From: Bacteroidales bacterium
GTDB taxonomy: Bacteria > Bacteroidota > Bacteroidia > Bacteroidales > UBA1556
Assembly: GCA_027064095.1 (NCBI GenBank)
Contig: JAMOQI010000082.1
Location: forward strand, 3,779-67,778
Direction: 5' to 3'
DNA length: 64,000 bases
The translations under genes were made by a program, and so were the position numbers. Each line of letters begins with the position of its first letter. Position 1 is the stretch's first letter. A model generated the notes under the pieces. The model made no database searches, had not been told where the DNA came from, and saw nothing but the letters and a program-made list of their open reading frames with translations. Shown in pieces: positions 13,985 through 46,879 of the stretch.

Positions 13985-13992
13985 CAAATATA
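13985..13992 (-). promoter_or_regulatory. candidate -7 box (TATATTTG on the minus strand) for CDS 11927..13951
   Basis: The plus strand reads caaatata, and the box lies 33 nt upstream of the chosen ATG. This supports the shorter start. Confidence 0.35.
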
Positions 13993-16622: not shown

Positions 16623-16658
16623 TTTTTTGGACAATTATAAGAAAAGGATTTAATAAAA

Positions 16659-31251: not shown

Positions 31252-31281
31252 TTGTTTTTTTATTATGTTGAATTTTCATTT

Positions 31282-32547
31282 ATGAAAAAGATTCTAACTT
31301 TTTTCTCGTATATAGTAATATTCCTTTTTTTCTTGTCTATTTTTGGATGGATAGTATTTCATATTCAAAAAGGAGATAAGGACTATGGTTTTTTAAACGA
31401 ACCAATTAAGTTTCTTTATACTTTTCCTGATATGTTTTCTCAATCGGTGGAAGAAGCAAAAAAATTACCGGCCACTTTTGTAGAAACACCACAAGATTTT
31501 AAATCGATAAATAATCTTGCAACTGATGTAAAAGCACTTGTAGCATATTCCGATACTAGTGATTCCAGAACTATTGCTTTGATGAATCTACGAACCGATT
31601 CCGTTTATTATAAATGGACAGTTCCTAACAAACATCAAGAGCATGCAAGAGTTGAAAATCCTTTATTATTGCCTAATAAATCAATTATTTATTCATTCGA
31701 CGCTGCTAGTGGTCTTCGAAGAATTGATTCTCTTGGGAATATTATCTGGATACAAGATAGTGTAAAACATCATCATTCTATGAATTTAGATAAAAATGGA
31801 GATATTTGGATTTGTGGTTTTGAGCCTGTTTATTATGCTACCGGCACATATAAACTTAATGGCAGAAGTGTTTTTTATATTGATGATTTTGTAACTAAAT
31901 TGGATACAGCAACAGGAAAAATACTCTTTAATAAATCATTTTCTGAAATATTAAGGGAGAATGGATTAGAGTATTATATATTAAAATCAAATGCTATTGA
32001 AGACCCATTACATATCAATGATATTGAACCCGCTTTGAAAACTACAAAATACTATAATGAAGGCGATTTGTTTATCAGTTCGAGGAATATGTCGTTCATT
32101 ATGCAATATCGACCATCAACAAATAAAGTTATTAGAATGATTGAAGGGCCCTTTGTTAGTCAACATGATGTTGATATATATCATGATAGTAGTTTAGTGT
32201 TTTTTAATAATAATTTTTATACAAATTGGACGAATAAAAGCATGGCTCCACCAAAAGATTCTTCTACATTGCAATTTGTTGGAAACATATATTCAACAAT
32301 AGCTCGATATGATTTGTGGAATGATAGTATTTCTTTTATAGAACAAAAAGCATTTATTGATAACGAGATTTTTACAGAAACAGAAGGCTTAATAGATTTT
32401 ATTGATGATTCTAATGTTTTTGTTGAAGAACAGAATACAGGTATTTTATGGATATTAAACGGTGATAGTGTTGTGTATAAAGATGTGTTGAAATCTCAAC
32501 ATAAGGGGTATCATCATTTGCCAAATTGGACAAGAATAATTAAATAA
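31282..32547 (+). CDS. membrane-anchored arylsulfotransferase-like (ASST / Arylsulfotran_2-like) beta-propeller protein, tentative
   Basis: N-terminal TM segment and His-containing motifs KHHHSMNLD, DPLHINDIE and SQHDVDIY, reminiscent of PAPS-independent aryl sulfotransferases. From memory only. Confidence 0.5.
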   Translation: MKKILTFFSYIVIFLFFLSIFGWIVFHIQKGDKDYGFLNEPIKFLYTFPDMFSQSVEEAKKLPATFVETPQDFKSINNLATDVKALVAYSDTSDSRTIALMNLRTDSVYYKWTVPNKHQEHARVENPLLLPNKSIIYSFDAASGLRRIDSLGNIIWIQDSVKHHHSMNLDKNGDIWICGFEPVYYATGTYKLNGRSVFYIDDFVTKLDTATGKILFNKSFSEILRENGLEYYILKSNAIEDPLHINDIEPALKTTKYYNEGDLFISSRNMSFIMQYRPSTNKVIRMIEGPFVSQHDVDIYHDSSLVFFNNNFYTNWTNKSMAPPKDSSTLQFVGNIYSTIARYDLWNDSISFIEQKAFIDNEIFTETEGLIDFIDDSNVFVEEQNTGILWILNGDSVVYKDVLKSQHKGYHHLPNWTRIIK

Positions 32548-32548
32548 T

Positions 32549-32692
32549 ATGATGGAATTATTATATATAGGACCAGGACTAGGGATAGGAACAATAATCC
32601 TTATGTTTGTAATTGGAGGAATAGTACTTTTTGCATTTGGATATATATTTTGGCTTAAATTAAAACGATTTTTTAAGAAAAAGGATAAATGA
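32549..32692 (+). CDS. unlisted 47-aa single-TM mini-protein
   Basis: ATG lies 1 nt after the upstream stop and the stop overlaps the next ATG (ATGA). It encodes MMELLYIGPGLGIGTIILMFVIGGIVLFAFGYIFWLKLKRFFKKKDK, a hydrophobic helix with a basic tail. Confidence 0.45.
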   Translation: MMELLYIGPGLGIGTIILMFVIGGIVLFAFGYIFWLKLKRFFKKKDK

Positions 32693-34095
32693 TTTATTTT
32701 ATTTCGCTTGGTTTTGGTGCTTCTCTGACTTTCCTTATATTGTTATGGAAAAGGACTTGTTTTCATAATGTTGCTGAAGGTAGTATAGGATTAGTAAATG
32801 AACTTTTAGGAGAAGCTGATGATGATGTGCTTATAAAGCAGATTCAGTCAAGTACTAATAAGTTACTCATTGATCTTTTTAAGATGTTTTTACTGATTGT
32901 TGTTGCAATAGCTATTGGTAGCATACCCGTAGTTGTTTATTGTGTTGCAATTTCAAAATCTATATCAGAATTAGATTTATCATCTTTGTATTCTATAATT
33001 TCAATCTCTATTGGAGCTAGTTTACCATTTATAATTCCTTTTAATAAAAAGTCGAATAATGGTTATTCTGAACTTTCAAAATTGCTTCATAGGATGATGT
33101 TGGATAATTATAATGTAGCAAAGAAACTTTTTAGCATTGAATCTAAAAGCATAACAAAAAAAGGACTTAAAACTCGAAATGATTTTGTAGTAATTTCTGG
33201 TTTAGCTCGAGCAGGGACAACAAGTCTGATGTCTGATTTGTCAGATTTAGATGGATTTGTGTCACTTTCTTATGCAAATATGCCTCTTCTTACTGCTCCA
33301 AATTTATGGCGTAAAGTATATAAGCCAAAACACGAAAAACTAAAGGAACGAAGTCATAAAGATGGTATAATGATTGGCTATAATTCCACGGAGGCTTTAG
33401 AAGAATATTTCTTTAAAATGATGGCTGATGATGATTATATTCATGAGAATTACGTCTCGGAATATGAATTAGGTGAAGAGGAGTACTATAATTATTTGAA
33501 GTATCAGCGCAATATTAAGAATGATGATTCAAAATTATATTTAGCTAAAAACAACAATTTTCTTATCAGATATAATTCATTAAGGCAGTATAATGACGAT
33601 TTTCTGTTATTTATACTCTTTAGAGATCCCTTGACTCATGCAGCCTCATTAATGGAGAAACATAAAGATTATATTAAATTACAAAAAGAAGATGATTTTG
33701 TACTTGAATATATGGACTGGCTTGGTCATCATGAATTTGGATTGCATCAAAAACAATTCTTATTTAATGATTCTACACTTATAGAAGGAGAAAAAGACAA
33801 AATAGATTATTGGTTGAAAATATGGATAAATTATTATTCTCATGCTATAAGAATTAATCATAAGAATACAATTTTTGTCGATTATGCCAATTATTGTAGT
33901 AATCCAACTCAAATAGTATCATCTATAGTTAATAAGGCAGGTTTAAATGTGAATTTGTCAGAATTGCAACCATTTAATAATAGAAGAAAATCTAATACTG
34001 AATACTCTAAAGATTTATTAAACAGAGCAGAGAATTTATACCAGGAGCTTCGAACTAAGGTTAACCCGGATTATTTTTCAAACACCCAAATTTAA
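32689..34095 (+). CDS. membrane-anchored PAPS-type sulfotransferase
   Basis: About 110 aa of N-terminal TM helices, a 5'-PSB-like P-loop ISGLARAGTTSL and a 3'-PB-like LFRDPLTHAASL. Confidence 0.65.
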   Translation: MIYFISLGFGASLTFLILLWKRTCFHNVAEGSIGLVNELLGEADDDVLIKQIQSSTNKLLIDLFKMFLLIVVAIAIGSIPVVVYCVAISKSISELDLSSLYSIISISIGASLPFIIPFNKKSNNGYSELSKLLHRMMLDNYNVAKKLFSIESKSITKKGLKTRNDFVVISGLARAGTTSLMSDLSDLDGFVSLSYANMPLLTAPNLWRKVYKPKHEKLKERSHKDGIMIGYNSTEALEEYFFKMMADDDYIHENYVSEYELGEEEYYNYLKYQRNIKNDDSKLYLAKNNNFLIRYNSLRQYNDDFLLFILFRDPLTHAASLMEKHKDYIKLQKEDDFVLEYMDWLGHHEFGLHQKQFLFNDSTLIEGEKDKIDYWLKIWINYYSHAIRINHKNTIFVDYANYCSNPTQIVSSIVNKAGLNVNLSELQPFNNRRKSNTEYSKDLLNRAENLYQELRTKVNPDYFSNTQI

Positions 34096-34192
34096 GTGCT
34101 TTTTTAAGCTAGCCCGTCCCCGAACTTGTTTCGCTATTTATTGCTCATTTATACAATTTGCTTTGCTTTTGTATGAATAATGTGGGTTAAAT

Positions 34193-34216
34193 AAAAAAGG
34201 CGACATTTAAGTCGCC
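34193..34216 (-). terminator. intrinsic terminator ending the long minus-strand gene run
   Basis: ggcgac (34199-34204) pairs with gtcgcc (34211-34216). The A-run at 34193-34198 on the plus strand gives a T-tail on the minus strand. The hairpin lies 36 nt past the stop at 34252. Confidence 0.65.
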
Positions 34217-34251
34217 AATTTTAGAGAGCAATTGTTATTAGAATAGTACTT

Positions 34252-34686
34252 TTATTTTTTCATAGAAAGAATGCCAACGGCACAGCCTGGTTTACCATCT
34301 AGGAAAGAAATATATATTTTGTAAATAGCAGTTTTGCTACAATAAAATTCAAATGCTTTAAAATCTGTTTTGCTTTTTGTATGATATGTACTTGCAACTA
34401 ATTTATTACCATCAAAAAGTTGTAAAATAGCTTCCCCTTCATAATCAAGGGCACTACAAACATCAAATTTGTAAGTATTTCCTTTTGATAATAAAACAGA
34501 AAAACGAGCAACAGGCAAATCAGTAGGATTTGTAGCTGCAGCAAGTTTTGCACGGTATTGTTGTAAGAATACAGAGTTGCTTGATATATTATGGCAACAG
34601 TTTGTTACAAGAGTCTGATTGCATTGAGAGTAAGCAAAACTTTTAGCTATTAATACTAGAATAATAATGGTTAATATCTTTTTCAT
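34252..34686 (-). CDS. hypothetical small secreted Cys-rich protein
   Basis: Signal peptide MKKILTIIILVLIAKSFAYSQ and seven cysteines in the mature part. Confidence 0.5.
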   Translation of the reverse strand: MKKILTIIILVLIAKSFAYSQCNQTLVTNCCHNISSNSVFLQQYRAKLAAATNPTDLPVARFSVLLSKGNTYKFDVCSALDYEGEAILQLFDGNKLVASTYHTKSKTDFKAFEFYCSKTAIYKIYISFLDGKPGCAVGILSMKK

Positions 34687-34696
34687 AATGTCTTCT

Positions 34697-35608
34697 TTAT
34701 GCGTTTATGTTAATGAAGCTATTACGTATTTTCTCCACTTCTGCTGCAATCTTAGCAATCTGTTCGTCAGTTATATTTACTTTACTTTCATCATTCTGAA
34801 CAATAACAAGCATTCCATTTACTATTTTAGATTCAGGTTCTGAATCAGTAGTTACAATACTTATATCATCATAAATTGTTTTCAGATTTTGAAAATCACT
34901 TAACAACTGTGCAAATTGTGGGTCAGATTTATAATTATTAAATATAAGTATTAGATTATTAAGAATAAGTTTTTGTTCTCCAATCCTTTCTGCAATTTTT
35001 TCATTGCTTTTATCAGTATACACTTGAGTGGCCAAGTAAGTACTTTCAATCCATACACCGGTAACAATTAATGTACTGATATTTGTCCTGTTATTTTCCC
35101 TTAAATAATCATCCATATTATTAAAACTGGAAATGGAAGTGTAGATAAGAGAATCAAGGTTATTAGAATTTGACGCCAAACGTTTTAATAGATCAAAATC
35201 AAAGAATTGACCAACTTTTAGTTTGTTTGACAAATCATTAATTGCAGAAACTGTTGACATTACAGAGCTTGTCTTTTCATAAAGGTTTAAATAACCAAGG
35301 TCAGTACCTAAGATGCCAAGGTTTACAGCACTATTAAAATCACCAACAACATTATCGATATTATCGGTGGAACTGATATATTCCTTATTAAATGGTACAT
35401 TCTCGTCTAAGAGGAGTGAGGCAATTTCTATTGGTGAAGATACGTTGTCAATAAGTTCAGTCATGCTTTCTTTTGCTACACCAATTGATTCTGGAGCAAT
35501 AATAGAGTCAACTTGTGTAAAGTCTTCATTACTTTCATTAGTGGAGTTGGAACAAGAGTACGTAAGTCCACTCGCAAGTAGCATTAGAAGTAAATGTTTT
35601 AGTTTCAT
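34697..35608 (-). CDS. hypothetical lipoprotein
   Basis: The ATG at 35608 gives MKLKHLLLMLLASGLTYSC, a lipobox-like sequence. The rest is predicted to be helical. Confidence 0.55.
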   Translation of the reverse strand: MKLKHLLLMLLASGLTYSCSNSTNESNEDFTQVDSIIAPESIGVAKESMTELIDNVSSPIEIASLLLDENVPFNKEYISSTDNIDNVVGDFNSAVNLGILGTDLGYLNLYEKTSSVMSTVSAINDLSNKLKVGQFFDFDLLKRLASNSNNLDSLIYTSISSFNNMDDYLRENNRTNISTLIVTGVWIESTYLATQVYTDKSNEKIAERIGEQKLILNNLILIFNNYKSDPQFAQLLSDFQNLKTIYDDISIVTTDSEPESKIVNGMLVIVQNDESKVNITDEQIAKIAAEVEKIRNSFININA

Positions 35609-35660
35609 AAAGGTCAATTTCAATTCATGATATATTTATATGAGATGCATATAATAAATA

Positions 35661-38600
35661 TCAATGTTTATTAGAATTAAATTTAAATTGTAATAGTTTT
35701 CGCAATCCGTTAGTCCTAAGTATAAAGAACAGTAATATGTTAAACAGCCATATTATACTAATATTAAAATAAAAAGTTTCATAATATCTCCCTAAAAAAT
35801 GTTTTCTGGGTGCAAAAAGATGTGAGCGAATATCTAAAGGAGAATCAATATTAGGGTCTGTATAAATAGCATCAACATGTTGTATGAGATTGTTGTTGTA
35901 ATTTATTATTTTGTTTTTTTCATAGAATTGTGTCACAATATCACTAATAGCTTCATTATGATATTTGTTGCGTAAGGCGTAATATTTGTCTTTTTGTGTT
36001 GATAGATATTTATTTATTTTCATACTAAGTCTATTATGAGCTAAATAAAACTCATAATTATAAATACTGTCGAGTTTAACAATGAAAGTATTATAGCTAT
36101 TGAAATATGCAGTATTAATCTTTTTTTGATCTGTTGTTAGTAATAAATTATTTTGTAGTTCCGGATATATGGAAACTTGTTTTTTGTATTCATTTGATAG
36201 TAGTTCAATGTTATTTCTGAGACCTTCCTCATATTCCATATTACCAATGTTCTTTTGTACACTTTTTAGGTATTTTTTTAGTTCAGGAATATAATATACT
36301 TGATGAAAGTCAGCCTTACTTTCTTTTTTCTCCAGATTATAAAAATGTTTTTCAAATTTATTATTCACAAATTGATTTACAATTAGTGCTTCGTAAGCCC
36401 ATTTACTCACCATAGCCTCGGCTATAATGGGCACTTTATCTATTCTTGCAATATTTTTATTCATCTTGTCGAAACTAAACATTGCGCCTCCTAAAACCAT
36501 TTGAGGAATTATAAGGAGTGGAATAATGATATAAATGGTTACGACTTCATCAAAAGAGCTGGAAATAATCAATCCTAGCAGGTTGGAAAATACTGAGACG
36601 CTAAAAAAAGTCAGCCAGTAGCTAAATCCCATTCCACTTATTTCTAAAACAGAATTACCTATTAGAATAAATAGTAGAGATTGGACTGTGGAAATTAATA
36701 ATAGAATTGATATTTTGGCCAATAAATATGCAGTTTTGCTCAAATTAAGAAATGCTTCTCTTTTTAATATTTTTTGGTCTCTTATAATTTCTTCAGCGCT
36801 GATAGTTAAGCCAATAAATATTGCTACAATAATACTCATAAAAATATATTGAGGTATATTTTCATTAAGTCTAAAAATATATTTATCTCCGGTAGGGATA
36901 TATTTAATAATATAGCTTAAAATAAAAGCAAGTATAGGAGCTTCGAGAAATGCAATCAGAATGTATGTTTTATTACTTAGCTTAGACTTTAAATCTCTTT
37001 GGAAATAAATCCAAGTTTGTTTAATTTTAGAAGGGATATCTAGATTTATTTCTGGAGCGGAGTTCTCTTCGGAGATTTTTCTATTAGTTGTTTGTTCAAG
37101 GTAAAGATTATTCCAGTCTTTAGGTTCTTTTTTTCGTTTGGAATTGTAGTTTCCATATTCATCTACTACTTCTCGGTGAATAATATTAAATAACTGTTCG
37201 GCATTTACATTTCCACAACTAGCACATTGAGCTTGCTCGTAGGAAGCTTGACCATCTTTTTGTTTAAAATAACTAATTATTTCAACAGGGTTGTCATACT
37301 GAATCATATATCCACCTTCGTCAAGGAGAATTACCTTATCAAAAATTTTATAAATATCTGATGATGGTTGATGAATAACAACAAATATCAATTTCCCTTT
37401 ATGTGATAGTTTACGTAGTAGATCCATCACATTTTCTGAATCTCTTGATGATAATCCACTTGTTGGCTCATCAACGAATAGGATAGAGGGCTCGCGAATT
37501 AATTCTAAAGCAATATTCAATCTTTTTCGCTGGCCGCCACTTATAAGTTTATTCAATACACTACCTACCTTTAGGTCTTTAATGTCGAATAAATCTAATG
37601 ACATTAGGGTGTTGTTAACAAGCTCGATAAGTTCTTCTTTGGATTTGTTGTTATAGCAAAATTTAGTGTTAAAATATAGATTTTCAAATACTGTTAAGTT
37701 TTCAATAAGTAAATCGTCTTGAGGTATAAATCCTATTGCACCTTCTAGTTTTTCTTTTTCTTTATGTAGGTCTATATTGTTTATTCTAACAGAACCTGTG
37801 TTTGGAGTATAACTTCCGGACAATACACTTAGAAGAGTTGATTTCCCGGAACCTGATGCTCCCATAATGGCAACAAGGGAGTTTTGTTGCTCATATATGT
37901 TCATTGGGTGCAATCCAATTTGAGAATCATTAAATTTGTAGCTTATATTTTCTGCTACAAAGCTTATTTTTGTTCCTTTATTATCTTTTATAAAACTCTC
38001 AAAAATATTTGAAAAGTAAATAGGCTTACTAACCGGAGTTTTTATTGTACTTCCAGGATTGAAAACAAAGCTTTGGTTCTTTGATAAAGTTAATCCGTTG
38101 AGTGTTAATTCTTGATTTCCAGAATATCTAACTAAATATAAATTGGTGCTGGAAATATGAAGAAAAATAAGCTGACCATCTAGTCTGTTATATTCTAAAT
38201 AATTATCTTGTTTTACTTTTTTATTGGAAATAACAATGAAACTGGAAACAGGAAGGATGTCTTTATCAGTGGAGAAAACAAGTTTTTTTAGATCGTCAAA
38301 TTCTTTTAAGTCGATATTAAAAACTTCTGCAATAGTATGTATTATCTCTATCCTTTGGAGGCTTTCTTGTTCTGAAATCATTTCAAGAAGACGGATAGTG
38401 GCAATTACTTTTTGTTTATGATCGAGGGTTTTGTTGATTCTTTTACATATTTTTAAAATACGTACCGAATCGGTCATGGATGTAAGCTTAGAGTTTTTTC
38501 GCTTTAAAGCTTTTAATTTCGACTCTTCTATTTGTTCATCAAAAAGTTTTAAGTAAGTATCAACATCGTTGAGGTTTAGCTCGTTGTGTAGGAAATTTTG

Positions 38601-38693
38601 TACATAAAGGCGCTCTTGTTCAAATTGCTCACTATCTTGATGGGCAATAATAGCAAATAATTGCATTAGCGCTTTTAGTATTTCTTCACTCAT
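35661..38693 (-). CDS. ABCG-type (NBD-TMD) ABC transporter with an N-terminal extension of about 270 aa and a C-terminal extension of about 230 aa
   Basis: Walker A GASGSGKST, signature ISGGQRKR, Walker B ILFVDEPTSGL, H-loop VIHQPS, then an ABC-2-type TMD. The N-terminus may be TerB-like helical. The C-terminus is a long helical region plus a final TM. Confidence 0.85.
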   Translation of the reverse strand: MSEEILKALMQLFAIIAHQDSEQFEQERLYVQNFLHNELNLNDVDTYLKLFDEQIEESKLKALKRKNSKLTSMTDSVRILKICKRINKTLDHKQKVIATIRLLEMISEQESLQRIEIIHTIAEVFNIDLKEFDDLKKLVFSTDKDILPVSSFIVISNKKVKQDNYLEYNRLDGQLIFLHISSTNLYLVRYSGNQELTLNGLTLSKNQSFVFNPGSTIKTPVSKPIYFSNIFESFIKDNKGTKISFVAENISYKFNDSQIGLHPMNIYEQQNSLVAIMGASGSGKSTLLSVLSGSYTPNTGSVRINNIDLHKEKEKLEGAIGFIPQDDLLIENLTVFENLYFNTKFCYNNKSKEELIELVNNTLMSLDLFDIKDLKVGSVLNKLISGGQRKRLNIALELIREPSILFVDEPTSGLSSRDSENVMDLLRKLSHKGKLIFVVIHQPSSDIYKIFDKVILLDEGGYMIQYDNPVEIISYFKQKDGQASYEQAQCASCGNVNAEQLFNIIHREVVDEYGNYNSKRKKEPKDWNNLYLEQTTNRKISEENSAPEINLDIPSKIKQTWIYFQRDLKSKLSNKTYILIAFLEAPILAFILSYIIKYIPTGDKYIFRLNENIPQYIFMSIIVAIFIGLTISAEEIIRDQKILKREAFLNLSKTAYLLAKISILLLISTVQSLLFILIGNSVLEISGMGFSYWLTFFSVSVFSNLLGLIISSSFDEVVTIYIIIPLLIIPQMVLGGAMFSFDKMNKNIARIDKVPIIAEAMVSKWAYEALIVNQFVNNKFEKHFYNLEKKESKADFHQVYYIPELKKYLKSVQKNIGNMEYEEGLRNNIELLSNEYKKQVSIYPELQNNLLLTTDQKKINTAYFNSYNTFIVKLDSIYNYEFYLAHNRLSMKINKYLSTQKDKYYALRNKYHNEAISDIVTQFYEKNKIINYNNNLIQHVDAIYTDPNIDSPLDIRSHLFAPRKHFLGRYYETFYFNISIIWLFNILLFFILRTNGLRKLLQFKFNSNKH

Positions 38694-38893
38694 GAGCTTT
38701 TATTTGGAATGTAAAGATTGCAATATTAAGAATAAAGTTAAAATATTATGTCTCAATAAAGAGGTGAATGTTTTTATATTTATATAATAATTATTAGTTA
38801 AAAAATATAAAAAAAACTGTGCATATACTACTGTTTATAATAAATATCCTATTGGAGAAAAGAGAATATTAAACAAACAGAGTCTGTAATAAA

Positions 38894-39268
38894 TTATAAA
38901 CAAATTAATTCGAATGGAATATCAACAAGTTCAGAATATTCTTCACCGGCTTCTTCCATATCTTCATCATCTTCGGTATAGAACCATTTAATAGTACAAT
39001 TATGGCCATTTTCTACCATTTCTTCTATTATCATAAGAATGTCAAGCAGAAGTTTTGATGAAGCGGTATTAAAATAGTTCATTTTAATATGTAGTTCTGT
39101 AAGTTCGTTAGGAGACTTTGCATATTCTTTAAGCCAATCCAAAATAGGCTCATAAAAAAGAGATGCGTCTTCTGGTAATGAACGTCCTGATATTTCAAAG
39201 ATATTATTCTCAGGATCAAACACAATCATAGGTGTATCTTCTTTTGCTTCTATTTTTATAGTCTTCAT
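38894..39268 (-). CDS. SiaC-family (DUF1987) regulatory phosphoprotein
   Basis: 124 aa. TPMIVFDPENNIFEISGRSLPEDASLFYEPILDWLKEY and YFNTASSKLLLDIL are typical of DUF1987. Confidence 0.8.
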   Translation of the reverse strand: MKTIKIEAKEDTPMIVFDPENNIFEISGRSLPEDASLFYEPILDWLKEYAKSPNELTELHIKMNYFNTASSKLLLDILMIIEEMVENGHNCTIKWFYTEDDEDMEEAGEEYSELVDIPFELICL

Positions 39269-39274
39269 ATCTGA

Positions 39275-39856
39275 TTATTTTAGATTACGTGAAACTTGAG
39301 TTGTAAGAATAAAGAAATAAGCGTCATCACCAATTTCTTTAAAAGTATAACCTAATTTGTTACCCGATTTTCGAGCTATATCAATTAGGCCTAAACCGGC
39401 ACCTCCGCGGTCAGATATTTTGCCAATCTTCATCTGTTCTTTATGTAATTGCTTAAGTCCGGCTTTATCTAATTTATTTATTTTTATTAATAGCTCTTCC
39501 ATTATTTCTTTATCATCAGAATGAACAACATTACCAGCGATGATAAAATAGTCGGTAAGGGATTTGGCTATAAGAAAAGTACCTATACCTTTTAAGTCGT
39601 CTTTAATACCTTTAAGGTTTTGGGCATGTTTACTAATATTCTGAAGGCTTTCAACGATAATGTGAAATACTTTCATTTGCAATGCGTTAGGCTCGGCGTC
39701 TTTGGCCATATTCTCTTCAGTTAGAGCTGTAAATGCCTTTGTGATTTGATGAGTTACTTCTCCCTCGTAGATTAGATTTATTTGATTTATCTTCATATTA
39801 CGATAAAAATCAAAAACATAATCGTGAAAGATTTCATTCATGAGTTTTTTCTCCAT
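39275..39856 (-). CDS. SiaB-family small protein kinase (HATPase-like, anti-sigma-factor-type fold)
   Basis: N-box-like VESLQNISKHA and G-box GGAGLGLIDIARKSG in 193 aa, encoded between the PP2C gene and the DUF1987 gene. Confidence 0.75.
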   Translation of the reverse strand: MEKKLMNEIFHDYVFDFYRNMKINQINLIYEGEVTHQITKAFTALTEENMAKDAEPNALQMKVFHIIVESLQNISKHAQNLKGIKDDLKGIGTFLIAKSLTDYFIIAGNVVHSDDKEIMEELLIKINKLDKAGLKQLHKEQMKIGKISDRGGAGLGLIDIARKSGNKLGYTFKEIGDDAYFFILTTQVSRNLK

Positions 39857-39877
39857 GATTATTTTGTATTTAGTTGT

Positions 39878-42487
39878 TTATATTTCTATTCCTATTAACA
39901 ATATATCATCTATCTGACGATAATTTCCTTGCCATGTATTTAATCTATCGGCAAATATAGTATGCATTTCTTTTAAATTAACATTAGGATTATCATTAAT
40001 TATCTTTCTTACTTGTTTCTCTTGGAATTTCTCAAAACTATTTTCTTTAAATTGGTCTGCTAATCCGTCAGAGAAGATAAATATCCTATCATTCTTTTGT
40101 AAGTCTATTTCATGAAGAATGAAATCTTTAGCTTTCTTTTTAGGAGTTATACCACCAATTGCACGCCTATTACCTTTTATTTGAATAAGCTCGTTTCCTC
40201 TTTGAATATATAATGGTCGGTGTGCTCCGGCAAAGTATAGTTTCTTCATGTCTTTACTAAACTGGCAAAATGCGATATCCATACCATCTCTGGTATTTCT
40301 GCTTCCATTTTCTTGTTTAAGGGTACGTTTAACTTCTTTGTCGAAAATGCTAAGTATTTCTGCAGCTTTTGCTTTAGGATGAGAATTTACTATGTCATTT
40401 AAAAGGAAGTATCCAATAAAGCTTAATAATGCTCCAGGCACTCCATGGCCGGTACAATCTACCGCTGCCAGGTAAATGCCATTGTCATTTTGTTTAAACC
40501 AAGGGAAGTCGCCACTTACTACATCTCGAGCTTTGTAGAAAATAAATGAATTTCTGAAATACTTATTTAAGATATCATCTTTAGGAAGTATTGCAGTTTG
40601 AATCCTTTGAGCATAATTGATACTTTCTGTTAATTTAAGGTTTTTGTCTATAATTTCCTTTTCAATAGCTTTAATATCAGATATATCATGAGCAACAATC
40701 AATATAGATTCCAGTTCTTTTTCTTCGTTAAATTCAGGGATGCTACTAACTTTAAGATAGTGAGTTTTAGAATCTAATAAAATTTCGAATTCGGTTTCTT
40801 GTTTTTCTAATACTTTTATGGAAGAATTAATTCTTTCTTTAATAAATGATCTAAATTCATCAGAAATATTAATTTCATTAATGTTTAAACCTTGTAATTC
40901 ATCTGGTTTATAAGGTAAATATTCTTCTACTTTTGGGTTTGCATAATGGAATTTTCCTTTTCTGCCAAAACGCATTATTAAATCAGGACTATTCTCTGAT
41001 AATGCTTGCATCTGACTCTTAAGACGTCTGTCTTTTTCAGCAATCATTTGCAATGTGATATCTCTGGTGTTGAATATCAAACCTTCAATTGCTGGATTGT
41101 CAAGCATATTTTTACCAGTTGTTTCCATCCAAATTTCACTACCATTGCTTGTATAATGCTTAAATTTATAGTTTACCTTTTCATTAGGGTATTTATGTAG
41201 TTTGATAAAGTTTTCTTTCACAAGAGTGATAAACTCATTTGGAATTCTATCAGTTGCCCGCATCCCAATAACTTCTTCAGGAATATAACCAAGAATTTTT
41301 TCTGCAGAAGGACTTTCATATTTGATTTTTCCTTTTGCATCAAATATTGTAATAATTTCTGAAGCATTTTCTAATAAAGAATGTAGTCGAGTTTTTGCTG
41401 ACTCCACTTCTTGAATTTGTTTTTCTAATTCATTATTACTTCTTTCAAGCTCTTCATGAGTCATTCGCATTTCTTCTGCATTTTGCTGCAACTCTTCTTC
41501 GTTTTCTTTTAATTCTTCTGTAAGAATTTGAGCCTCATGAAGCAATTTTTCAGTGTTAAGATTCATTTGTACGCTGAATAATACTTGTCCAATTATAGGT
41601 CCAAGTTCTTCCATTAATAAAATTACCTTTTGAGGTATATAATCTTGGATATCAGCTATTTCTATTATGCCTTGCACTTTTGTTTCGCTTATTAACGGCA
41701 TAATAAACAAACTACCGGGTTTTTTGTCGGTGATAATTCCGGAAGTAATACTAACAAATTCTTCCGGTATTTCTGTTCTGTAAATACTTAAGCGTTCGTA
41801 GGCAGCTTGTCCTATTAATCCTTCACCAACTTTAAAAGACTGATGAATAAATTTCTTACGTTTATATGCATATGCTGCTGTTAAATTAAAATTTTCATTT
41901 TCTTCATTATAAATATAGAATCTACCTTGTGTGATATCACAATAATCAAGGATTTTCTTTATAACATTATAGGATAAATCGTTTAGGTTGTTGTATTTTC
42001 TTAATTCTTTTGATATTAATTCTTTACCCTCATTAATCCAAATATTTGTTGACTCTTTTTCTCTGTTTTTTACCAAATTATTACGCATCATTATCAATGA
42101 GCGTGTGAGTAGATCGTCTTTATTCAGATTTCCAAAATTACTATTCTCAAAATCACCTTCCCCTATGCTTTTAGCAAATAAAGCATTGTTTGTTATGATA
42201 TTATTTTTTTGTTCAAGTTTATATTCATAATGATTTTTCTTCATTAAAAATACTGTTCCAAAATAATATGCTATCCCTCCAAATATTATAGGGATAAACC
42301 AAGTAATAATAATTGATGGATAGTTCTCATGAATATATATAAATTTATTTGTACCCTCAGGTACATTACCAGTACTACTATTGACAAGAAATAAAATATA
42401 TGTTGAGAAAAGTAAACCAATTATTACTCCACCAGCGAGGAGTTGTTTTAAGAGTATGGTTTCGTTTTTTGAATATTTGTTTTTCAT
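39878..42487 (-). CDS. membrane receptor-type PP2C (SpoIIE-family) phosphatase, SiaA-like: 2 TM, HAMP-like linker, GAF, coiled coil, 2 PAS, PP2C
   Basis: TM helices at aa ~20-35 and ~57-82; GAF with GEGLIGQAAY..ITSGI; Glu/Gln-rich coiled coil at aa ~311-370; PAS-like IIFDAKGKIKYESPSAEKILGY and LIMRFGRKGKFHYANP; PP2C motifs VSGDF, AAVDCTGHGVPGA, FSDGLADQ and DDILLIGIEI. Confidence 0.85.
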   Translation of the reverse strand: MKNKYSKNETILLKQLLAGGVIIGLLFSTYILFLVNSSTGNVPEGTNKFIYIHENYPSIIITWFIPIIFGGIAYYFGTVFLMKKNHYEYKLEQKNNIITNNALFAKSIGEGDFENSNFGNLNKDDLLTRSLIMMRNNLVKNREKESTNIWINEGKELISKELRKYNNLNDLSYNVIKKILDYCDITQGRFYIYNEENENFNLTAAYAYKRKKFIHQSFKVGEGLIGQAAYERLSIYRTEIPEEFVSITSGIITDKKPGSLFIMPLISETKVQGIIEIADIQDYIPQKVILLMEELGPIIGQVLFSVQMNLNTEKLLHEAQILTEELKENEEELQQNAEEMRMTHEELERSNNELEKQIQEVESAKTRLHSLLENASEIITIFDAKGKIKYESPSAEKILGYIPEEVIGMRATDRIPNEFITLVKENFIKLHKYPNEKVNYKFKHYTSNGSEIWMETTGKNMLDNPAIEGLIFNTRDITLQMIAEKDRRLKSQMQALSENSPDLIMRFGRKGKFHYANPKVEEYLPYKPDELQGLNINEINISDEFRSFIKERINSSIKVLEKQETEFEILLDSKTHYLKVSSIPEFNEEKELESILIVAHDISDIKAIEKEIIDKNLKLTESINYAQRIQTAILPKDDILNKYFRNSFIFYKARDVVSGDFPWFKQNDNGIYLAAVDCTGHGVPGALLSFIGYFLLNDIVNSHPKAKAAEILSIFDKEVKRTLKQENGSRNTRDGMDIAFCQFSKDMKKLYFAGAHRPLYIQRGNELIQIKGNRRAIGGITPKKKAKDFILHEIDLQKNDRIFIFSDGLADQFKENSFEKFQEKQVRKIINDNPNVNLKEMHTIFADRLNTWQGNYRQIDDILLIGIEI

Positions 42488-42498
42488 ATCTTAATTTT

Positions 42499-43251
42499 TC
42501 AAGATTTTAAGATTTTAGAATAGTCATTAGCAAAGTTTTGTAATAGTTCAAAACAATTATTATTATTTGATTTCATATCTGCAAATTCCATAACAATTGT
42601 TGTTTTATCGTTTACCACTATAGGGATAATATAAATATTTTTAGGAAGAATATCTCCACTACCCGAAGTTATTCTTAAATAATTATCAGGGATATTTTTA
42701 ATAATTGTAGCTTTTTTATCCAAAGCTACTTGTCCATGAAGTCCATCTCCTAATTGAAATGAGGGAGGCTTAGTATCAGAGTACAGAGCATAATTTACCC
42801 AATTCTCAAACTCATTTTCATCGTTTAGTTTGAAACTTACAGCTAAATCAAATTCTAAGTTTCTACATATTGTGGAGATACATTTTTCAACAAACTCATC
42901 ACTTTCAAAATCTATCTTTTTGTCAGAAAATAATGATTTAGTATTTAATGAATATTCTTTAATATCCTTAGTTTTATTTTCAGTTTTTAGTTCAGCGTTA
43001 TTAAGGTTATCATTTTTATCAGCTTTTGTAGCTGTTGTTGTAAGTATAAGTCTCCAGTTTATAAAAAAGCTTCCTGTTGATAATATAATAATGGACCATA
43101 CAAATAAATGAAATTCACCGCTATATTTTTCAATTTTATAACTGGAAAAATAATTATCCATTCTAAAATATGCCATTATTACTAAAGCAATAATTGCAAT
43201 TAGAATGACAGTATTTGTAATTCTCAATATTTGTAAGTTTTTGTATTTCAT
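42499..43251 (-). CDS. 2-TM membrane protein with a cytoplasmic GAF-like domain (paralogous to the GAF of the PP2C protein)
   Basis: GDGLHGQVALDKKATIIKNIPDNYLRITSGSG parallels GEGLIGQAAYERLSIYRTEIPEEFVSITSGI in the next gene. ATGA overlap with cheB. Confidence 0.65.
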   Translation of the reverse strand: MKYKNLQILRITNTVILIAIIALVIMAYFRMDNYFSSYKIEKYSGEFHLFVWSIIILSTGSFFINWRLILTTTATKADKNDNLNNAELKTENKTKDIKEYSLNTKSLFSDKKIDFESDEFVEKCISTICRNLEFDLAVSFKLNDENEFENWVNYALYSDTKPPSFQLGDGLHGQVALDKKATIIKNIPDNYLRITSGSGDILPKNIYIIPIVVNDKTTIVMEFADMKSNNNNCFELLQNFANDYSKILKS

Positions 43252-43823
43252 TTTCTTGGTAGTTTAAGGATATAGTTTGTTATTTGTTCTGGTGAAAAAA
43301 TATGGTCTATTTTAGTAAGCTGCTTTGCAGCCTGTGGCATTGTTCGAGCTTGAGATAAAGCGGGGTCTTGAATAATTGTTGTTCCTCCATTAATATTAAC
43401 AGACTTCATTCCTAAAGCGCCATCTTTATTAGCTCCTGAAAGAAGTATACCAAGCATTTTACTTCTAAAAATACGTGCTGCCGTATTAAAAGTTATGTCT
43501 ATTGCCGGTCTAGAGTGGTTTACATTGTCATAGGTTGAAAGACTAAAATGATTTCCCAATTCAACCATAAGATGATAATTTGCCGGAGCAAGATAAATAC
43601 TGCCACTACTTATGTGCATTTTATCATATGGTTCAACAATTGGTAAATTACTTTTTAATTCTAAGGCTTCAATAAAGCCACTTCTAACATGCTTAAGCCT
43701 ATGTAAACATAAAATAATTGGTAAAGGAAAATCTTTTGGAATTTGTGATATCAATTTGATAACCACTCTGAAACTTCCTGCAGATCCACCAATTACAATA
43801 TATTTAATGTTTTTTTCTATCAT
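43248..43823 (-). CDS. cheB: protein-glutamate methylesterase catalytic domain only (CheB without a receiver domain)
   Basis: The catalytic-triad contexts are conserved: IGGSAGS (Ser), ILCLHR (His) and LSGANKDGALGM (Asp). The 191-aa protein has no REC domain. Confidence 0.85.
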   Translation of the reverse strand: MIEKNIKYIVIGGSAGSFRVVIKLISQIPKDFPLPIILCLHRLKHVRSGFIEALELKSNLPIVEPYDKMHISSGSIYLAPANYHLMVELGNHFSLSTYDNVNHSRPAIDITFNTAARIFRSKMLGILLSGANKDGALGMKSVNINGGTTIIQDPALSQARTMPQAAKQLTKIDHIFSPEQITNYILKLPRK

Positions 43824-44644
43824 TAAAAATGTCTTTTATAAAATTTCTCTTCTTCGTTATAAACTTTAAACTTTTTGTCGATGTCAAAAATGGCAATATT
43901 TTCTTTAATACCTGTAATAAGAAAACCTCCTCCTTCCATTTTTTTATGGAATAGATTAATTATTTTTTGTTCTCTTACATGTGTATAACTAATAAATTTG
44001 TTTCGGAAAAGGATAAGATTTGGATTAAAAGGAAGGTTAATATCTTCCATGCTATTCTTGTAAATAAAAGTGTTTTTAATTAATTCTTTCTTGATAAAGA
44101 TACTTTGATCTATTCTTTCAATATAATTATTGAGATCGTCTGATTCGTCAATTCGTTTAATATTATTTTCAGAATTTGAAATTATTGTTGAGCTAATTAT
44201 ACCTTTTCGGCAAAGTTCCAAATTGCTCTGACTCATATCGCTGATGATAATTTTACTCTTGTTTATTAATTTATATTTATGCAAATAAATCAAGAGGCTA
44301 AAGTATTCACTTCCCTGACTAACTTCCGGAATCCATATTCTCAATGGCTTTTTTACTAGTATTTTATCTAAGATGTCCTTTTTTAGCAATCGCCACATAG
44401 CAGGGTCTCTAAATAAGCTTATATGTTCACAATAAATACATGATAATAATTTGTCGAATAGTCTTTTGTCATTTTTTATAGCGTTGATAAATGAGCTGAC
44501 TGTAGCATATTTGCTATATCTCATTACAGCAGATATATTTCTATTCATGGCTCCCATAGAATACTGACTTAAGTCAATATTATGGGTGCTTTTTATAGCA
44601 GAAATAATGTCTTTATAATTTATAATGCTTAATGTCGTGTCCAT
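43823..44644 (-). CDS. CheR-like methyltransferase paralogue with a degenerate SAM-binding motif
   Basis: Retains SLFRDPAMW but has IWIPEVSQGSEYFSL where IWSAGCSTGEE is expected, and LILFRNKFISY where CRNVLIYF is expected. The ATG at 44644 is preferred over the TTG at 44689. TAATG overlap with cheB. Confidence 0.7.
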   Translation of the reverse strand: MDTTLSIINYKDIISAIKSTHNIDLSQYSMGAMNRNISAVMRYSKYATVSSFINAIKNDKRLFDKLLSCIYCEHISLFRDPAMWRLLKKDILDKILVKKPLRIWIPEVSQGSEYFSLLIYLHKYKLINKSKIIISDMSQSNLELCRKGIISSTIISNSENNIKRIDESDDLNNYIERIDQSIFIKKELIKNTFIYKNSMEDINLPFNPNLILFRNKFISYTHVREQKIINLFHKKMEGGGFLITGIKENIAIFDIDKKFKVYNEEEKFYKRHF

Positions 44645-44740
44645 ATGCAAATAAGTCAAAAGATGACCTAAATTAAGAATAGCCGTCAAAAATGAAATTC
44701 CTTGTACGCAATAATAGGGGTAAAAGGTTTCATGAAAATG

Positions 44741-45577
44741 TTATTGTTTTAAAAACAATTTGCCTCTTTTCTTAAATTTAGATAGATTTGGGCCTAAAAT
44801 GCTTTCGTGAACACCTAAGAGGAGGTAAGAATCCGGATGTAAATTATTGTAAAAACTTTCTATAATTCTGGATTGTAACTTTTGATTATGATAAATGAGA
44901 ACATTTCTGCATGATATAAGATCTAAATTGGCAAAGTCTAAATAAGGTTTTTTAACTAAGTCATTTTGAAAGAAAATAATCTTTTTCTTAAGAAAATCAT
45001 GCATTGTAATTGTATCTCTGGATTTGTCAATTTTGAAATACTTTTTATAATCGATATTTGTATCTTCGTCATAATTTAAAGGGTTATTTCTAATAACCTT
45101 ATTAAAATTGCTGATATAATCTAAATTGTTACGGTATCGATATTCTCCTTTTTTTGCAATATTTAGTACTTTGGTATTAATATCACTGGCAAAAATTCTA
45201 ACTTTGTCTTCCAACCCTAATACATGCAATAATATAGCCATTGAGTATGCCTCTTGGCCAGTAGAACATCCGGAAATCCAGATGTTTATTGTTTTTCTTT
45301 TTCGAAGAATTGTAAAAGTATTAGTTCTTAAGAATAGCCACACTTCAGGATCTCGAAATAATTCTGTTGTATTGACGGTAATCTCTTCCATCATATTATC
45401 AGCGAAACTTTTACTTGTTGTAATAGATTGTTTTAATTGTTCAAAACTTAAATTCTGATTTATCATCAATCTATTAATACGCCTTAGTAAAGACCCTTCT
45501 GCATAATCTGTAAAATCAAATGAAGTATATTGCTTAATAGTAAATTTTATATCTTCAAATTCATCTTTTGAGAGCAT
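44741..45577 (-). CDS. cheR: protein-glutamate O-methyltransferase CheR
   Basis: TELFRDPEVW, IWISGCSTGQEAYSMAILL, IFASDIN and SCRNVLIYHN, so all signature motifs are intact. Confidence 0.9.
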   Translation of the reverse strand: MLSKDEFEDIKFTIKQYTSFDFTDYAEGSLLRRINRLMINQNLSFEQLKQSITTSKSFADNMMEEITVNTTELFRDPEVWLFLRTNTFTILRKRKTINIWISGCSTGQEAYSMAILLHVLGLEDKVRIFASDINTKVLNIAKKGEYRYRNNLDYISNFNKVIRNNPLNYDEDTNIDYKKYFKIDKSRDTITMHDFLKKKIIFFQNDLVKKPYLDFANLDLISCRNVLIYHNQKLQSRIIESFYNNLHPDSYLLLGVHESILGPNLSKFKKRGKLFLKQ

Positions 45578-45605
45578 GGCTATGATTTAGCATATAATTA
45601 AGTTG

Positions 45606-45613
45606 CAAATATA
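45606..45613 (-). promoter_or_regulatory. candidate -7 box (TATATTTG on the minus strand) for the cheR-led operon
   Basis: The plus strand reads caaatata, 28 nt upstream of the cheR ATG at 45577. Confidence 0.35.
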
Positions 45614-45920
45614 ATTAATGTGATAACATAAATGACATATTTTTCCTTTTTCTATTCATTTGCATATATCTTTAAAAATGCTATGGAATAATTTTATTCA
45701 CTAGTTGCACTAATTTTTTGCATAAATAAAAAATATTTCTTTGTTGAGTAAGTTTTATTAAAAAAATATAGAGTTGTTTTTTTAAAATATTTATAAGATA
45801 AGTCAGTTTTATATTTGAGATTAGTTATGATGAAAATTATAAAATCCTTATAATCAATACTAAAAATGTTATTTGTAAAACAACAATGAATAAATATTTT
45901 TTATGAAGTGGTAAAATATT

Positions 45921-45928
45921 TATTTTTG
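45921..45928 (+). promoter_or_regulatory. candidate -7 box TATTTTTG for CDS 45980..46879
   Basis: TAnnTTTG match ending 51 nt upstream of the ATG. Confidence 0.25.
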
Positions 45929-45979
45929 TTATTTTAATAACATAAATATTAATATTGTTTAAACCAAAATTTTTTAGAT

Positions 45980-46879
45980 ATGAAAAACTTAGTAATCATA
46001 ATGATAACTCTTTTCTTAGGGTTAAATTTAAATGCACAAAAAATAAAACCTTATGTTTTAGGAGCTATAAGTAATAAAACTATGGCAGCAACAAAAGCTA
46101 TGGTAAAAACAAACCTTCAATCCTCAGGTTTAAAGGTTATTGGTGAATATATGCCGGCAAAAGATTCCAGGCGTTGGATAATGGCGGTTACAAGTTCAGA
46201 TTTAGCTTCTGCTGTTAAGAGAGAAGGTGGCTTAAGAGGTTTTGCAGCAGTATTGCGTGTGGCAATTACAAAGGAGGGTTCAAATGTGAATATTACTTAT
46301 ACTAATCCTTTTTATTGGGGTAATGCGTATTTTCAAGAGGATTTCCCAAAAGTAGAGGCAAACTATAAAGCGTTTAATGATAAACTAATAGTTGCAATGA
46401 AAAAATCTGGTACATATATAGGAACTTACTTTGGCTCAGAAAAAGGTGTTGATATTGATGATGTTAGAGAATATCAATATATGTTTGGTATGCCTGAATT
46501 CGATGATATAGTTACTTTGGGAGAATATTCTTCTTTCGATGCAGCAAAGAGTAGGTTAGATGCAAATATTAAAGCTGGAATATCAGGATTAAAACTGGTT
46601 TATGCTTATGAAATTCCCGGTACAAAATTAAAACTTTATGGATTTGCAATTAATGGAATCAACGGGGAGTCTTCATTTTTACCTATCATTGATTTAGGAA
46701 CTCCCAAACAGACAGCATTTTTGCCTTATGAAGTTTTAGTGAATGATAAAGAAGTTGTGATGCTACATGGTAGATATAGAATTGCGTTGGCATTTCCTGA
46801 TTTATCTATGGGGACATTCTCTAAAATTATGTCAACACCTGGTGATATTGAAGAAGCTTTGAAGAAGCTTTGTAAATAG
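45980..46879 (+). CDS. hypothetical secreted protein
   Basis: Signal peptide MKNLVIIMITLFLGLNLNAQ. No motif recognised with confidence (possibly DUF302-like). Confidence 0.5.
   Translation: MKNLVIIMITLFLGLNLNAQKIKPYVLGAISNKTMAATKAMVKTNLQSSGLKVIGEYMPAKDSRRWIMAVTSSDLASAVKREGGLRGFAAVLRVAITKEGSNVNITYTNPFYWGNAYFQEDFPKVEANYKAFNDKLIVAMKKSGTYIGTYFGSEKGVDIDDVREYQYMFGMPEFDDIVTLGEYSSFDAAKSRLDANIKAGISGLKLVYAYEIPGTKLKLYGFAINGINGESSFLPIIDLGTPKQTAFLPYEVLVNDKEVVMLHGRYRIALAFPDLSMGTFSKIMSTPGDIEEALKKLCK

Follow-up and report, generated by a model that had tools for sequence, protein, structure and literature searches.

Why would a bacterium keep the genes for reversible glutamate methylation, as used in chemotaxis, in a cluster that encodes neither a chemoreceptor nor a CheA kinase? 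This question is raised by a 64-kb stretch of DNA from a Bacteroidales bacterium (contig JAMOQI010000082.1, ~30% G+C), referred to as the window; all positions follow the numbering of the whole stretch. In the window, genes for the methyltransferase CheR1, its paralogue CheR2 and the methylesterase CheB are followed by genes for a membrane-anchored GAF protein (TM-GAF), a receptor-phosphatase of the PP2C type and homologues of the kinase SiaB and the phosphoprotein SiaC. A preliminary description had placed these seven genes at 38894–45577 on the minus strand, and all seven co-directional open reading frames (ORFs) are found there. It regarded the seven genes as the complete unit, which has to be corrected. 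Genes for an ABCG-type exporter, a lipoprotein and a small secreted protein lie 3' of siaC on the same strand, and the unit comprises ten genes that run from 45577 to 34252 and end at a terminator-like hairpin.

The ten genes very probably form one functional unit. We slightly favour the view that this operon encodes a CheA-independent sensory pathway that adapts by methylation. The coupling of a CheR/CheB module to PP2C, SiaB and SiaC, with methylation acting on the receptor-phosphatase, had been proposed before. It now has strong comparative support: the gene order is kept while the flanks are not, and the phosphatase contains a conserved helix with Glu-Glu pairs, from which we infer methylation of this protein. 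If this is true, reversible glutamate methylation would serve as sensory memory for a Ser/Thr-phosphorylation pathway controlling the cell envelope or surface behaviour.

Gene order and methylation enzymes

One genome per species was scanned with an alignment of CheB. At least 547 loci with a relative were detected and the best 80 were kept. These originate from Bacteroidales, Salinivirgaceae, Draconibacterium and several Cytophagales families and genera, with CheB 56–70% identical. The closest species representative of the window is a metagenome-assembled genome labelled Draconibacterium orientale (70% CheB identity). Downstream genes were surveyed by tblastn, and loci were counted only if enough sequence was available (at least 5.5 kb downstream for PP2C, SiaB and SiaC).

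In 62 of 66 loci, cheB is followed by co-oriented genes for PP2C, SiaB and SiaC, and a CheR is encoded upstream of cheB in 77 of 79. The TM-GAF gene follows cheB in 72 loci (median gap 4 nt). At the other end of the block, siaC has the exporter gene as its immediate downstream neighbour in 58 of 61 loci (median gap 48.5 nt). The exporter gene is accompanied by the lipoprotein gene (53 of 57 loci) and by the gene of the small secreted protein, which is present in 52 loci and starts a median of 2 nt after the lipoprotein gene. Overall, median intergenic gaps are 2–62 nt and overlaps are frequent. Metagenome contigs with a CheB that is ~60% identical show the same gene order, including exporter, lipoprotein and secreted protein. 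The upstream neighbours in the window (RmuC, a GWxTD protein and a 299-aa protein) were found at no other locus among the best 80; thus, the conserved block is sharply bounded. Adjacency of the two modules in this genome only, which the preliminary description had considered, does not apply: they are co-conserved and their flanks differ.

The 80 loci encode the nearest relatives of this CheB. The observed conservation is that of one orthologous group, with no independent re-assembly, which weakens the argument from gene order, and part of this order may be due to common descent. Furthermore, some loci lack a module. Two of them (L068 and L083) are reduced to cheR-cheR-cheB-TM-GAF followed by unrelated genes (YgbB; glycosyltransferases), so the methylation module can occur without an adjacent partner switch, and in L058 there is no cheR within 10 kb upstream. 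These observations would suit two or three unrelated operons that stand side by side by chance or vertical inheritance. However, order and tight spacing persist at 56–60% CheB identity within completely different flanks, and the modules are interleaved, with GAF paralogues and receptors among the che genes and a chemoreceptor-like helix in the PP2C protein. The lack of any functional link is hardly credible.

The methylation enzymes themselves agree well with their preliminary assignments. CheR1 aligns to the CheR structures 5FTW and 1AF7 (PDB) and keeps the S-adenosylmethionine (SAM) motif GCSTGQEAYS together with ASDIN and CRNVLIY; these motifs are retained in 80 relatives. CheR2 is 26% identical to CheR1, and its SAM site is degenerate as had been stated. 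Motif I reads EVSQGSEYFS. Across 50 orthologues the ATDI(D/N) motif fails to keep its acidic residue, and these orthologues share the degeneration of motif I. Its gene starts with TTG, whereas the 273-aa product of gene callers starts from the ATG at codon 16. CheR2 is present in 45 of 79 loci and 26 loci have a single CheR. CheB consists of 191 aa (184–201 aa in orthologues). The Pfam match covers the full model in this protein, leaving no room for a receiver domain. CheB matches the PDB entries 3SFT, 1CHD and 1A2O, and the sequence contexts of the catalytic Ser, His and Asp, already described as intact, are invariant in 16 relatives. Profile searches with Pfam and the NCBIfam SiaB family upheld the CheR, CheB, DUF1987 and SiaB assignments alike.

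Neither MCPsignal (PF00015) nor CheA, CheW or GGDEF was found in the cluster, in 39 of the 56 window ORFs of at least 100 aa or in the annotated neighbourhoods inspected. The claim that chemoreceptors (methyl-accepting chemotaxis proteins, MCPs), CheA, CheW and diguanylate cyclases are missing holds for the cluster and these ORFs; for the genome as a whole we infer the absence of CheA, CheW and MCPs. Receiver-less CheB proteins are also known from genuine chemotaxis systems, e.g. the F3 class. An early census reported no MCPs in sequenced Bacteroidetes; later work found chemoreceptors in some of them, which weighs against a CheA-independent pathway. CheR and CheB might belong to a canonical chemoreceptor/CheA/CheW system with genes at another place in the genome, and their adjacency to the partner switch might be due to shared regulation or inheritance only. 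Against this stand the order cheR-cheB-GAF-PP2C-siaB-siaC, which is kept across taxonomic orders while the flanks vary, the overlapping start and stop codons and a chemoreceptor-like site conserved in the cluster's own proteins. Additionally, the named hosts (Chryseolinea relatives, Fulvivirga and Draconibacterium) are not known to be flagellated. Judged from the cluster, the scanned ORFs and the neighbourhoods inspected, a canonical system as the destination of CheR and CheB is very unlikely.

A candidate methyl-accepting helix

The candidate substrate of CheR1 and CheB is the receptor-phosphatase. Its preliminary architecture of two transmembrane (TM) segments, HAMP-like linker, GAF, two PAS domains and PP2C stands in most parts. 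Hydropathy shows two clear membrane segments, Pfam matches PAS, PAS_9 and SpoIIE (2.6e-15), and the metal-binding motifs of PP2C are visible in the sequence. The GAF domain is matched weakly (GAF_2). Pfam HAMP does not match the window protein and matches orthologues weakly. The external loops of the window protein are short, with no obvious ligand-binding ectodomain. Compared with the SiaA equivalog model of NCBIfam, the protein scores 163 bits (cut-off 700) and only residues 598–866 are matched.

The candidate methyl-accepting helix directly follows the GAF domain and precedes the first PAS domain. It carries four Glu-Glu pairs in exact heptad spacing. In a test of 13 proteins this run was unique, and the other cluster proteins in this set have neither heptad Glu-Glu pairs nor a site of the type [EQ][EQ]xx[ASTG][ST]. 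Of 65 phosphatase orthologues, 62 keep the motif. In an alignment of 67 orthologues (mean column identity), the helix belongs to the most conserved 20-residue stretches of the phosphatase (0.83–0.86), together with the PP2C active site (0.92) and the linker between PAS1 and PAS2 (0.88).

From 459 distinct instances, the consensus [LM]xAQEEE[LM]RQN[ML]EE[LM]xATQEE[ML]xR was derived, whose residues are 92–100% conserved. At the central site the Glu-Glu pair is invariant and is followed by Ala at +3 (86%) and Thr at +4 (99%); Arg, Asn and Thr are kept at 97–99%. In the heptad register, Leu or Met occupies position a, polar residues (Gln, Asn, Thr; 71–99% conserved) occupy position d, and the Glu-Glu pairs fall on f and g. 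Chemoreceptors are methylated at sites of the consensus EExxA(S/T) with a spacing of seven residues, as in LEETAAS and MEQLTAT of Tsr. The central site of the family, EE[LM]xAT, fits this consensus.

The helix is not confined to the phosphatase. A second type of helix-bearing protein occurs at the loci (570–900 aa; TM or sensor domain, HAMP, GAF, motif and PAS). In Bacteroidales, its gene is enclosed by the pair of cheR genes; in Cytophagales, it precedes the only cheR. Such extra receptors between or beside cheR genes are found in 39 of 79 loci and are absent from this window.

A profile of the helix was searched exhaustively against 1.84 billion representative proteins, each standing for a cluster at 50% identity. 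It matched 5,334 protein clusters at E<=1e-3 and 3,670 at E<=1e-10. A word-indexed protein search with a 52-residue helix profile gave short fragments only, evidently because its hits are length-limited, and was used solely to seed the profile of the exhaustive search. The best 150 proteins (P0310-P0459) contain 2 to 10 matching stretches each; GAF is present in 143 of them, PP2C in 6 and a fused CheR or CheB domain in none. The architecture of the family is sensor-HAMP-GAF-[helix-PAS]n, mostly without catalytic output; L004:6947-9121 and L007:6973-8937 also encode members, and in the window the phosphatase is the sole one. Among 18 sampled members the N-terminus, where present, is 4HB_MCP_1, Cache_3-Cache_2 or HAMP and the C-terminus is a run of PAS domains or PP2C; an MCP signalling domain, a histidine kinase or GGDEF was not found in these 18. 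A simple H-box pattern search on the helix-family proteins likewise gave no histidine kinases. One apparent GGDEF motif turned out to be a false positive of the pattern search, located inside a PAS domain. Two output-less receptors that were located are encoded as orphans, a long way from cheR and cheB genes; thus, gene adjacency cannot tie them to the enzymes. The picture is that of a chemoreceptor-like family: many sensors, some encoded beside the core genes and others scattered, with one shared conserved cytoplasmic element.

Several features weigh against methylation of this helix. The central site of the window protein is EEMRMT, with Met instead of Ala at +3. Small residues, which chemoreceptor sites have by consensus on the upstream side of the pair, are missing. 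In contrast to many chemoreceptor sites, the pair positions hardly ever hold Gln. Conservation of the helix is high and not unique, since the PP2C active site and the PAS1-PAS2 linker equal or exceed it. Furthermore, signalling helices (S-helices) have been described as ~40-residue helices with polar core residues between two signalling domains. The phosphatase helix meets this description by its location between GAF and PAS and its polar d positions, and it also fits a generic signalling helix that needs no methylation. Polar-core helices of this kind often connect GAF, PAS and PP2C domains, and methylation is not known for them. The Glu-Glu helix could accordingly be an ordinary structural element of a pathway that is still a single one, with the substrate of CheR and CheB being TM-GAF, the exporter, or another cluster-encoded or unlinked protein. 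This alternative is hard to reconcile with the lack of a comparable site in the other cluster proteins and with the recurrence of the motif in the extra receptors beside the cheR genes. It also leaves up to ten copies per protein, in an output-less family with chemoreceptor-type sensors, difficult to explain for a linker. An ordinary helix is therefore considered unlikely. For the Glu-Glu helix as methyl acceptor, the sequence evidence tips the balance narrowly in favour.

TM-GAF resembles the phosphatase in part. Its GAF domain is paralogous to that of the phosphatase (33% identity over 88 aa, E 1e-10), and it has neither the Glu-Glu helix nor an output domain. It had been described as a protein with two TM segments; hydropathy shows a single clear one. 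TM-GAF may act as co-sensor, anchor or decoy.

Partner switch, exporter and limits of the operon

The downstream half of the cluster encodes a partner switch of the SiaB/SiaC type. The 193-aa kinase, previously called HATPase-like, is recognised by the NCBIfam model SiaB_fam_kinase (151.9 bits, cut-off 85) as well as by DUF6272 of Pfam, and aligns to P. aeruginosa SiaB (PDB entry 6KKO, chain A) with an E value of 2.5e-19. The assignment of the 124-aa protein to DUF1987 was likewise substantiated. It aligns to SiaC of PDB entries 6KKO and 6K4F free of gaps, including the Asn-Thr phosphosite, and N67-T68 lies within YFNTASSKLLLDIL, a stretch near-invariant in 68 sequences. The equivalog models specific for SiaA, SiaB and SiaC of P. 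aeruginosa all score under their cut-offs.

In P. aeruginosa, SiaB phosphorylates SiaC at T68, and SiaC attaches to the stalk helices of SiaD only in its unphosphorylated form. SiaC there regulates the product of the adjacent gene, and it was proposed that DUF1987 proteins generally regulate adjacent proteins. In the window, the preliminary description had called the target of SiaC unknown and left out the obvious candidate, the exporter encoded next to siaC. On the comparative evidence, the chance that the exporter is the target is about even.

The exporter is a half-transporter (TIGR00955, 4e-66) that carries a highly conserved N-terminal regulatory head of 260 aa. The head was modelled with AlphaFold (AF2; 38 sequences), giving a mean predicted local distance difference test (pLDDT) score of 86.7. 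It comprises a helical TerB-like domain and a β-sandwich. All top-50 Foldseek matches of the β-domain in the PDB are FHA domains (Rad53, CEP170, EssC, MEK1 and DgcB) with probabilities of 0.91–1.0. In an alignment of 62 sequences, S182, N199 and G200 of this FHA-like domain are kept. Of the canonical phosphothreonine-binding residues (Arg, Ser-x-x-His and Asn), the Arg and His are not conserved at the expected loops (62 sequences, judged by eye with predicted strands), which counts against a phosphorylation-dependent contact. Accordingly, phospho-dependent binding by the FHA-like domain cannot be assumed.

At two loci, the place of the exporter after siaC is taken by a hybrid kinase of ~1000 aa with the domains PAS-PAS-HisKA-HATPase-REC (L058:15241-18231 and L074:9592-12594). 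Since the kinase replaces the exporter, a modular target slot after siaC would fit.

Signal flow could also take a different direction. The exporter and its envelope partners might act as the sensor (flux sensing, Bce-type), or SiaC might have an unlinked target, with the exporter merely co-transcribed. The short external loops of the phosphatase and its lack of an obvious ectodomain, the missing phosphothreonine-binding residues, a gap of 200 nt before the exporter gene in the window and the hybrid kinase in the exporter's place are all in line with this idea. On the other hand, the exporter follows siaC in nearly all loci and thereby holds the slot of SiaD, the target of SiaC in P. aeruginosa. 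It also bears a dedicated, highly conserved cytoplasmic head, and occupation of the slot by another signalling enzyme suits an output better than an input. A different flow or output is improbable.

In the slightly favoured pathway, with methylation on the phosphatase and the exporter as output, signals would enter the phosphatase via its GAF and PAS domains. In other species, further input could come from the extra Cache- or 4HB-HAMP-GAF-[helix-PAS]n receptors of the helix family. CheR1 would methylate and CheB would demethylate the Glu-Glu pairs of the helix connecting GAF with PAS. Neutralisation of charge at the f/g pairs may alter helix packing and in this way reset PP2C activity, so that methylation of the helix would provide adaptation or memory, as receptor methylation does in chemotaxis. 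Because CheB has no receiver domain, feedback would need to arise from conformation-dependent availability of the substrate. PP2C and SiaB would together set the phosphorylation state of Thr68 in SiaC, one form of which may bind the TerB-like/FHA-like head. The SiaC-bound head would gate export of an envelope component that is handled with the two secreted proteins.

On a wider scale, Bacteroidota may possess their own CheA-less counterpart of chemotaxis, in which a methyl-accepting receptor family of more than 5,000 clusters, with helix-PAS units in place of an MCP signalling domain, is adapted by CheR and CheB and signals via a receptor-PP2C/SiaB/SiaC switch to an FHA-headed exporter or, in some species, a hybrid kinase. 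This generalisation is tentative and somewhat less likely to be right than wrong.

One locus (L071) has a second pair of SiaB-like and SiaC-like proteins (L071:3313-4828) upstream of its cheR-cheR-cheB-GAF block. The SiaB-like protein has 379 aa, about twice the usual length. No PP2C gene follows the block; a protein with a PP2C domain is encoded ~7 kb away on the other strand.

The coordinates of the operon and its signals are compiled in Table 1. The junctions of the first seven genes consist of overlaps of 1 nt and 4 nt and gaps of 6, 11, 21 and 51 nt, the last of which becomes 96 nt from the ATG start of cheR2; this matches the overlaps and the range of 6–96 nt given in the preliminary description. 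Co-transcription of the operon genes is presumed from this arrangement. The TAnnTTTG box reported 28 nt before cheR is present (TAtaTTTG). This pattern occurs about once per kb and strand in the window and is thus weak evidence of a promoter. A sigma-70 promoter scan returned 83 sites compared with 75 in shuffled sequence, with a consensus that is wrong for this phylum. At the 3' end, the terminator-like hairpin ranked first in a scan of the minus strand from 33900 to 46100. It is the richest in G-C pairs (5 of 6) and has the sole clean T-run.

One feature of the window weighs against a single transcript. The spacer between siaC and the exporter gene (38694-38893) is 200 nt long and AT-rich, contains no TAnnTTTG match and is an outlier in length, since the median in 60 other loci is 48.5 nt. 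This spacer may hold a promoter of its own or a lineage-specific regulatory element.

Table 1. Features of the ten-gene operon, listed from 5' to 3' on the minus strand.
Feature	Position	Strand	Evidence and remarks
TAnnTTTG box (Bacteroidota -7-like)	45606..45613	-	Sequence reading; 28 nt upstream of cheR1 ATG
cheR1, protein-glutamate methyltransferase, intact SAM motif	44741..45577	-	Pfam CheR 2e-35; CheR_N above cut-off
cheR2, CheR paralogue, degenerate SAM pocket	43823..44689	-	Pfam CheR 1e-17; CheR_N under cut-off
cheB, receiver-less protein-glutamate methylesterase	43248..43823	-	Pfam CheB_methylest 1.8e-45, full model
TM-GAF, membrane-anchored GAF protein, 250 aa	42499..43251	-	Pfam GAF_2 1e-8; start overlaps cheB stop by 4 nt
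Receptor-phosphatase, 869 aa: 2 TM, HAMP-like linker, GAF, Glu-Glu heptad helix, PAS, PAS, PP2C (SpoIIE type)	39878..42487	-	Pfam, hydropathy
Candidate methyl-accepting helix, phosphatase aa 321-350	41438..41527	-	Four Glu-Glu pairs, exact heptad spacing (324/5, 331/2, 338/9, 345/6)
SiaB-family protein kinase (DUF6272), 193 aa	39275..39856	-	Pfam DUF6272 7e-37
SiaC-family phosphoprotein (DUF1987), 124 aa, N67-T68 phosphosite motif kept	38894..39268	-	Pfam SiaC 2e-42
ABCG-type half-transporter, 1010 aa: nucleotide-binding domain, ABC-2 membrane domain, C-terminal extension	35661..38693	-	ABC_tran 1e-29, ABC2_membrane 2e-21
Exporter TerB-like helical domain, aa 1-140	38274..38693	-	Pfam TerB on most homologues; AF2 helices at 3-140
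Exporter FHA-like β-sandwich, aa 150-225	38019..38246	-	Foldseek
Lipoprotein, 303 aa	34697..35608	-	Signal peptide, invariant Cys19
Small secreted protein, 144 aa, three invariant Cys (C30, C77, C116)	34252..34686	-	Signal peptide
Intrinsic-terminator-like hairpin GGCGAC-loop-GTCGCC, T-run	34189..34216	-	36 nt past last gene

The two envelope proteins have no relative in profile searches of Pfam, NCBIfam and the PDB. For the lipoprotein, a single-sequence AF2 model was unusable (pLDDT 39). A search for exporter homologues by a word-indexed method returned mostly truncated sequences, a length effect. The C-terminal extension of the exporter (35661-36350, aa 783-1010) is a conserved stretch of ~230 residues with the last membrane segment at aa 973-997 and no match to a known family. 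A role of the TerB-like/ABC part in phage defence was also considered and is not supported; PADLOC gave generic ABC ATPase matches only.

The plus strand beyond the operon end encodes an arylsulfotransferase (ASST, 5e-32) and, after it, a protein of 468 aa that weakly matches sulfotransferases (31252-34095), both convergent with the operon. About 9 kb past the operon end lies a gene for a sensor kinase with TPR, HisKA and HATPase domains (22877-24979, plus strand), which is not kept near the cluster in other genomes. An unusual fusion protein of 982 aa is encoded at 51362-54310 (plus strand) and combines a receiver-like domain (Response_reg, 29 bits, just under the cut-off) with PPDK_N (1e-37), an AMP/ATP-binding domain of the pyruvate phosphate dikinase type. 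Additionally, the window contains genes for cargo of the type IX secretion system and outer-membrane proteins, which confirm that the DNA stems from Bacteroidota. These are Omp28 with Por_Secre_tail (11927-14068, minus strand), DUF6029 followed by Omp28 (14979-17543, plus strand) and two PKD domains with CHU_C (19848-21941, minus strand).

Relation to known systems

Methylation by CheR and CheB is the textbook molecular memory. So far it is tied to arrays of MCPs, CheW and CheA, and the recognised chemosensory classes are all defined by CheA. If the pathway proposed here is true, methylation-based adaptation would be a portable module that is not bound to a single receptor family. A function would emerge for the 'orphan' cheR and cheB genes of non-flagellated Bacteroidota, a large unannotated receptor family would be defined, and switching by SiaC/DUF1987 would extend past cyclic di-GMP to the control of ABC exporters. 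Cultured hosts exist (Fulvivirga, Chryseolinea relatives and Draconibacterium), which makes the predictions directly testable. In the literature searched, with incomplete coverage, no description of CheR/CheB linked to SiaB/SiaC, PP2C or this exporter was found.

The SiaABCD system of P. aeruginosa is similar in the order of PP2C, SiaB-type kinase, DUF1987 protein and target gene and in the retained N67-T68 motif, and the PP2C domain is closest to that of SiaA. Differences concern both ends of the pathway. The target slot is occupied by the GGDEF protein SiaD there and by an ABCG-type exporter here, or by a hybrid histidine kinase in two loci. The phosphatase described here additionally contains the GAF domain, the Glu-Glu helix and two PAS domains, and CheR, CheR-like, CheB and TM-GAF proteins are added upstream.

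Chemosensory pathways built from MCPs, CheW and CheA, including the non-motility Wsp system, share an intact CheR and CheB with the present one, as well as receptor-like proteins with 4HB, Cache and HAMP domains and heptad Glu-Glu pairs that look like methylation sites. Their receptor genes are also partly clustered with the core genes and partly scattered as orphans. In contrast, the cluster described here contains no MCP domain, CheW, CheA or CheY. Transmission would instead occur via a Ser/Thr phosphatase and a partner switch, and CheB has no receiver domain and hence no kinase-driven feedback.

Switches of the RsbU/RsbV/RsbW type and PP2C sensor phosphatases likewise combine an input-regulated PP2C, a HATPase-like Ser/Thr kinase and a small phosphoprotein, with a helix between sensor and effector. 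Here, the phosphoprotein is a DUF1987 protein and not a canonical STAS protein, and the output is not a sigma factor. We know of no partner switch that is associated with CheR and CheB, and none was found in the literature searched.

In fusions of CheB, CheR, PAS and histidine kinase domains (Proteobacteria and others), NEELQS(T/S) heptads directly precede PAS and an MCP domain is missing. These heptads would share the pattern xEE[LM]xx[ST] with the helix described here. Such fusions would be the nearest precedent for substrates of CheR and CheB other than MCPs. They differ in that enzymes and presumed substrate form one polypeptide with a histidine kinase as output, whereas separate genes and a PP2C/SiaB/SiaC output are found here.

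For the exporter, Rv1747 of M. tuberculosis offers a parallel. It is an FHA-regulated ABC exporter under Ser/Thr phosphorylation, and the ligand of its FHA module is the transporter's own phosphorylated linker. Both proteins are half-transporters with a nucleotide-binding domain and an ABC-2 membrane domain, carry an N-terminal module with FHA fold and are accompanied by a Ser/Thr phosphorylation system. The exporter of the window differs by its single FHA-like domain, which follows a TerB-like domain and does not have the phosphothreonine-binding residues, and by the DUF1987 protein as its presumed ligand.

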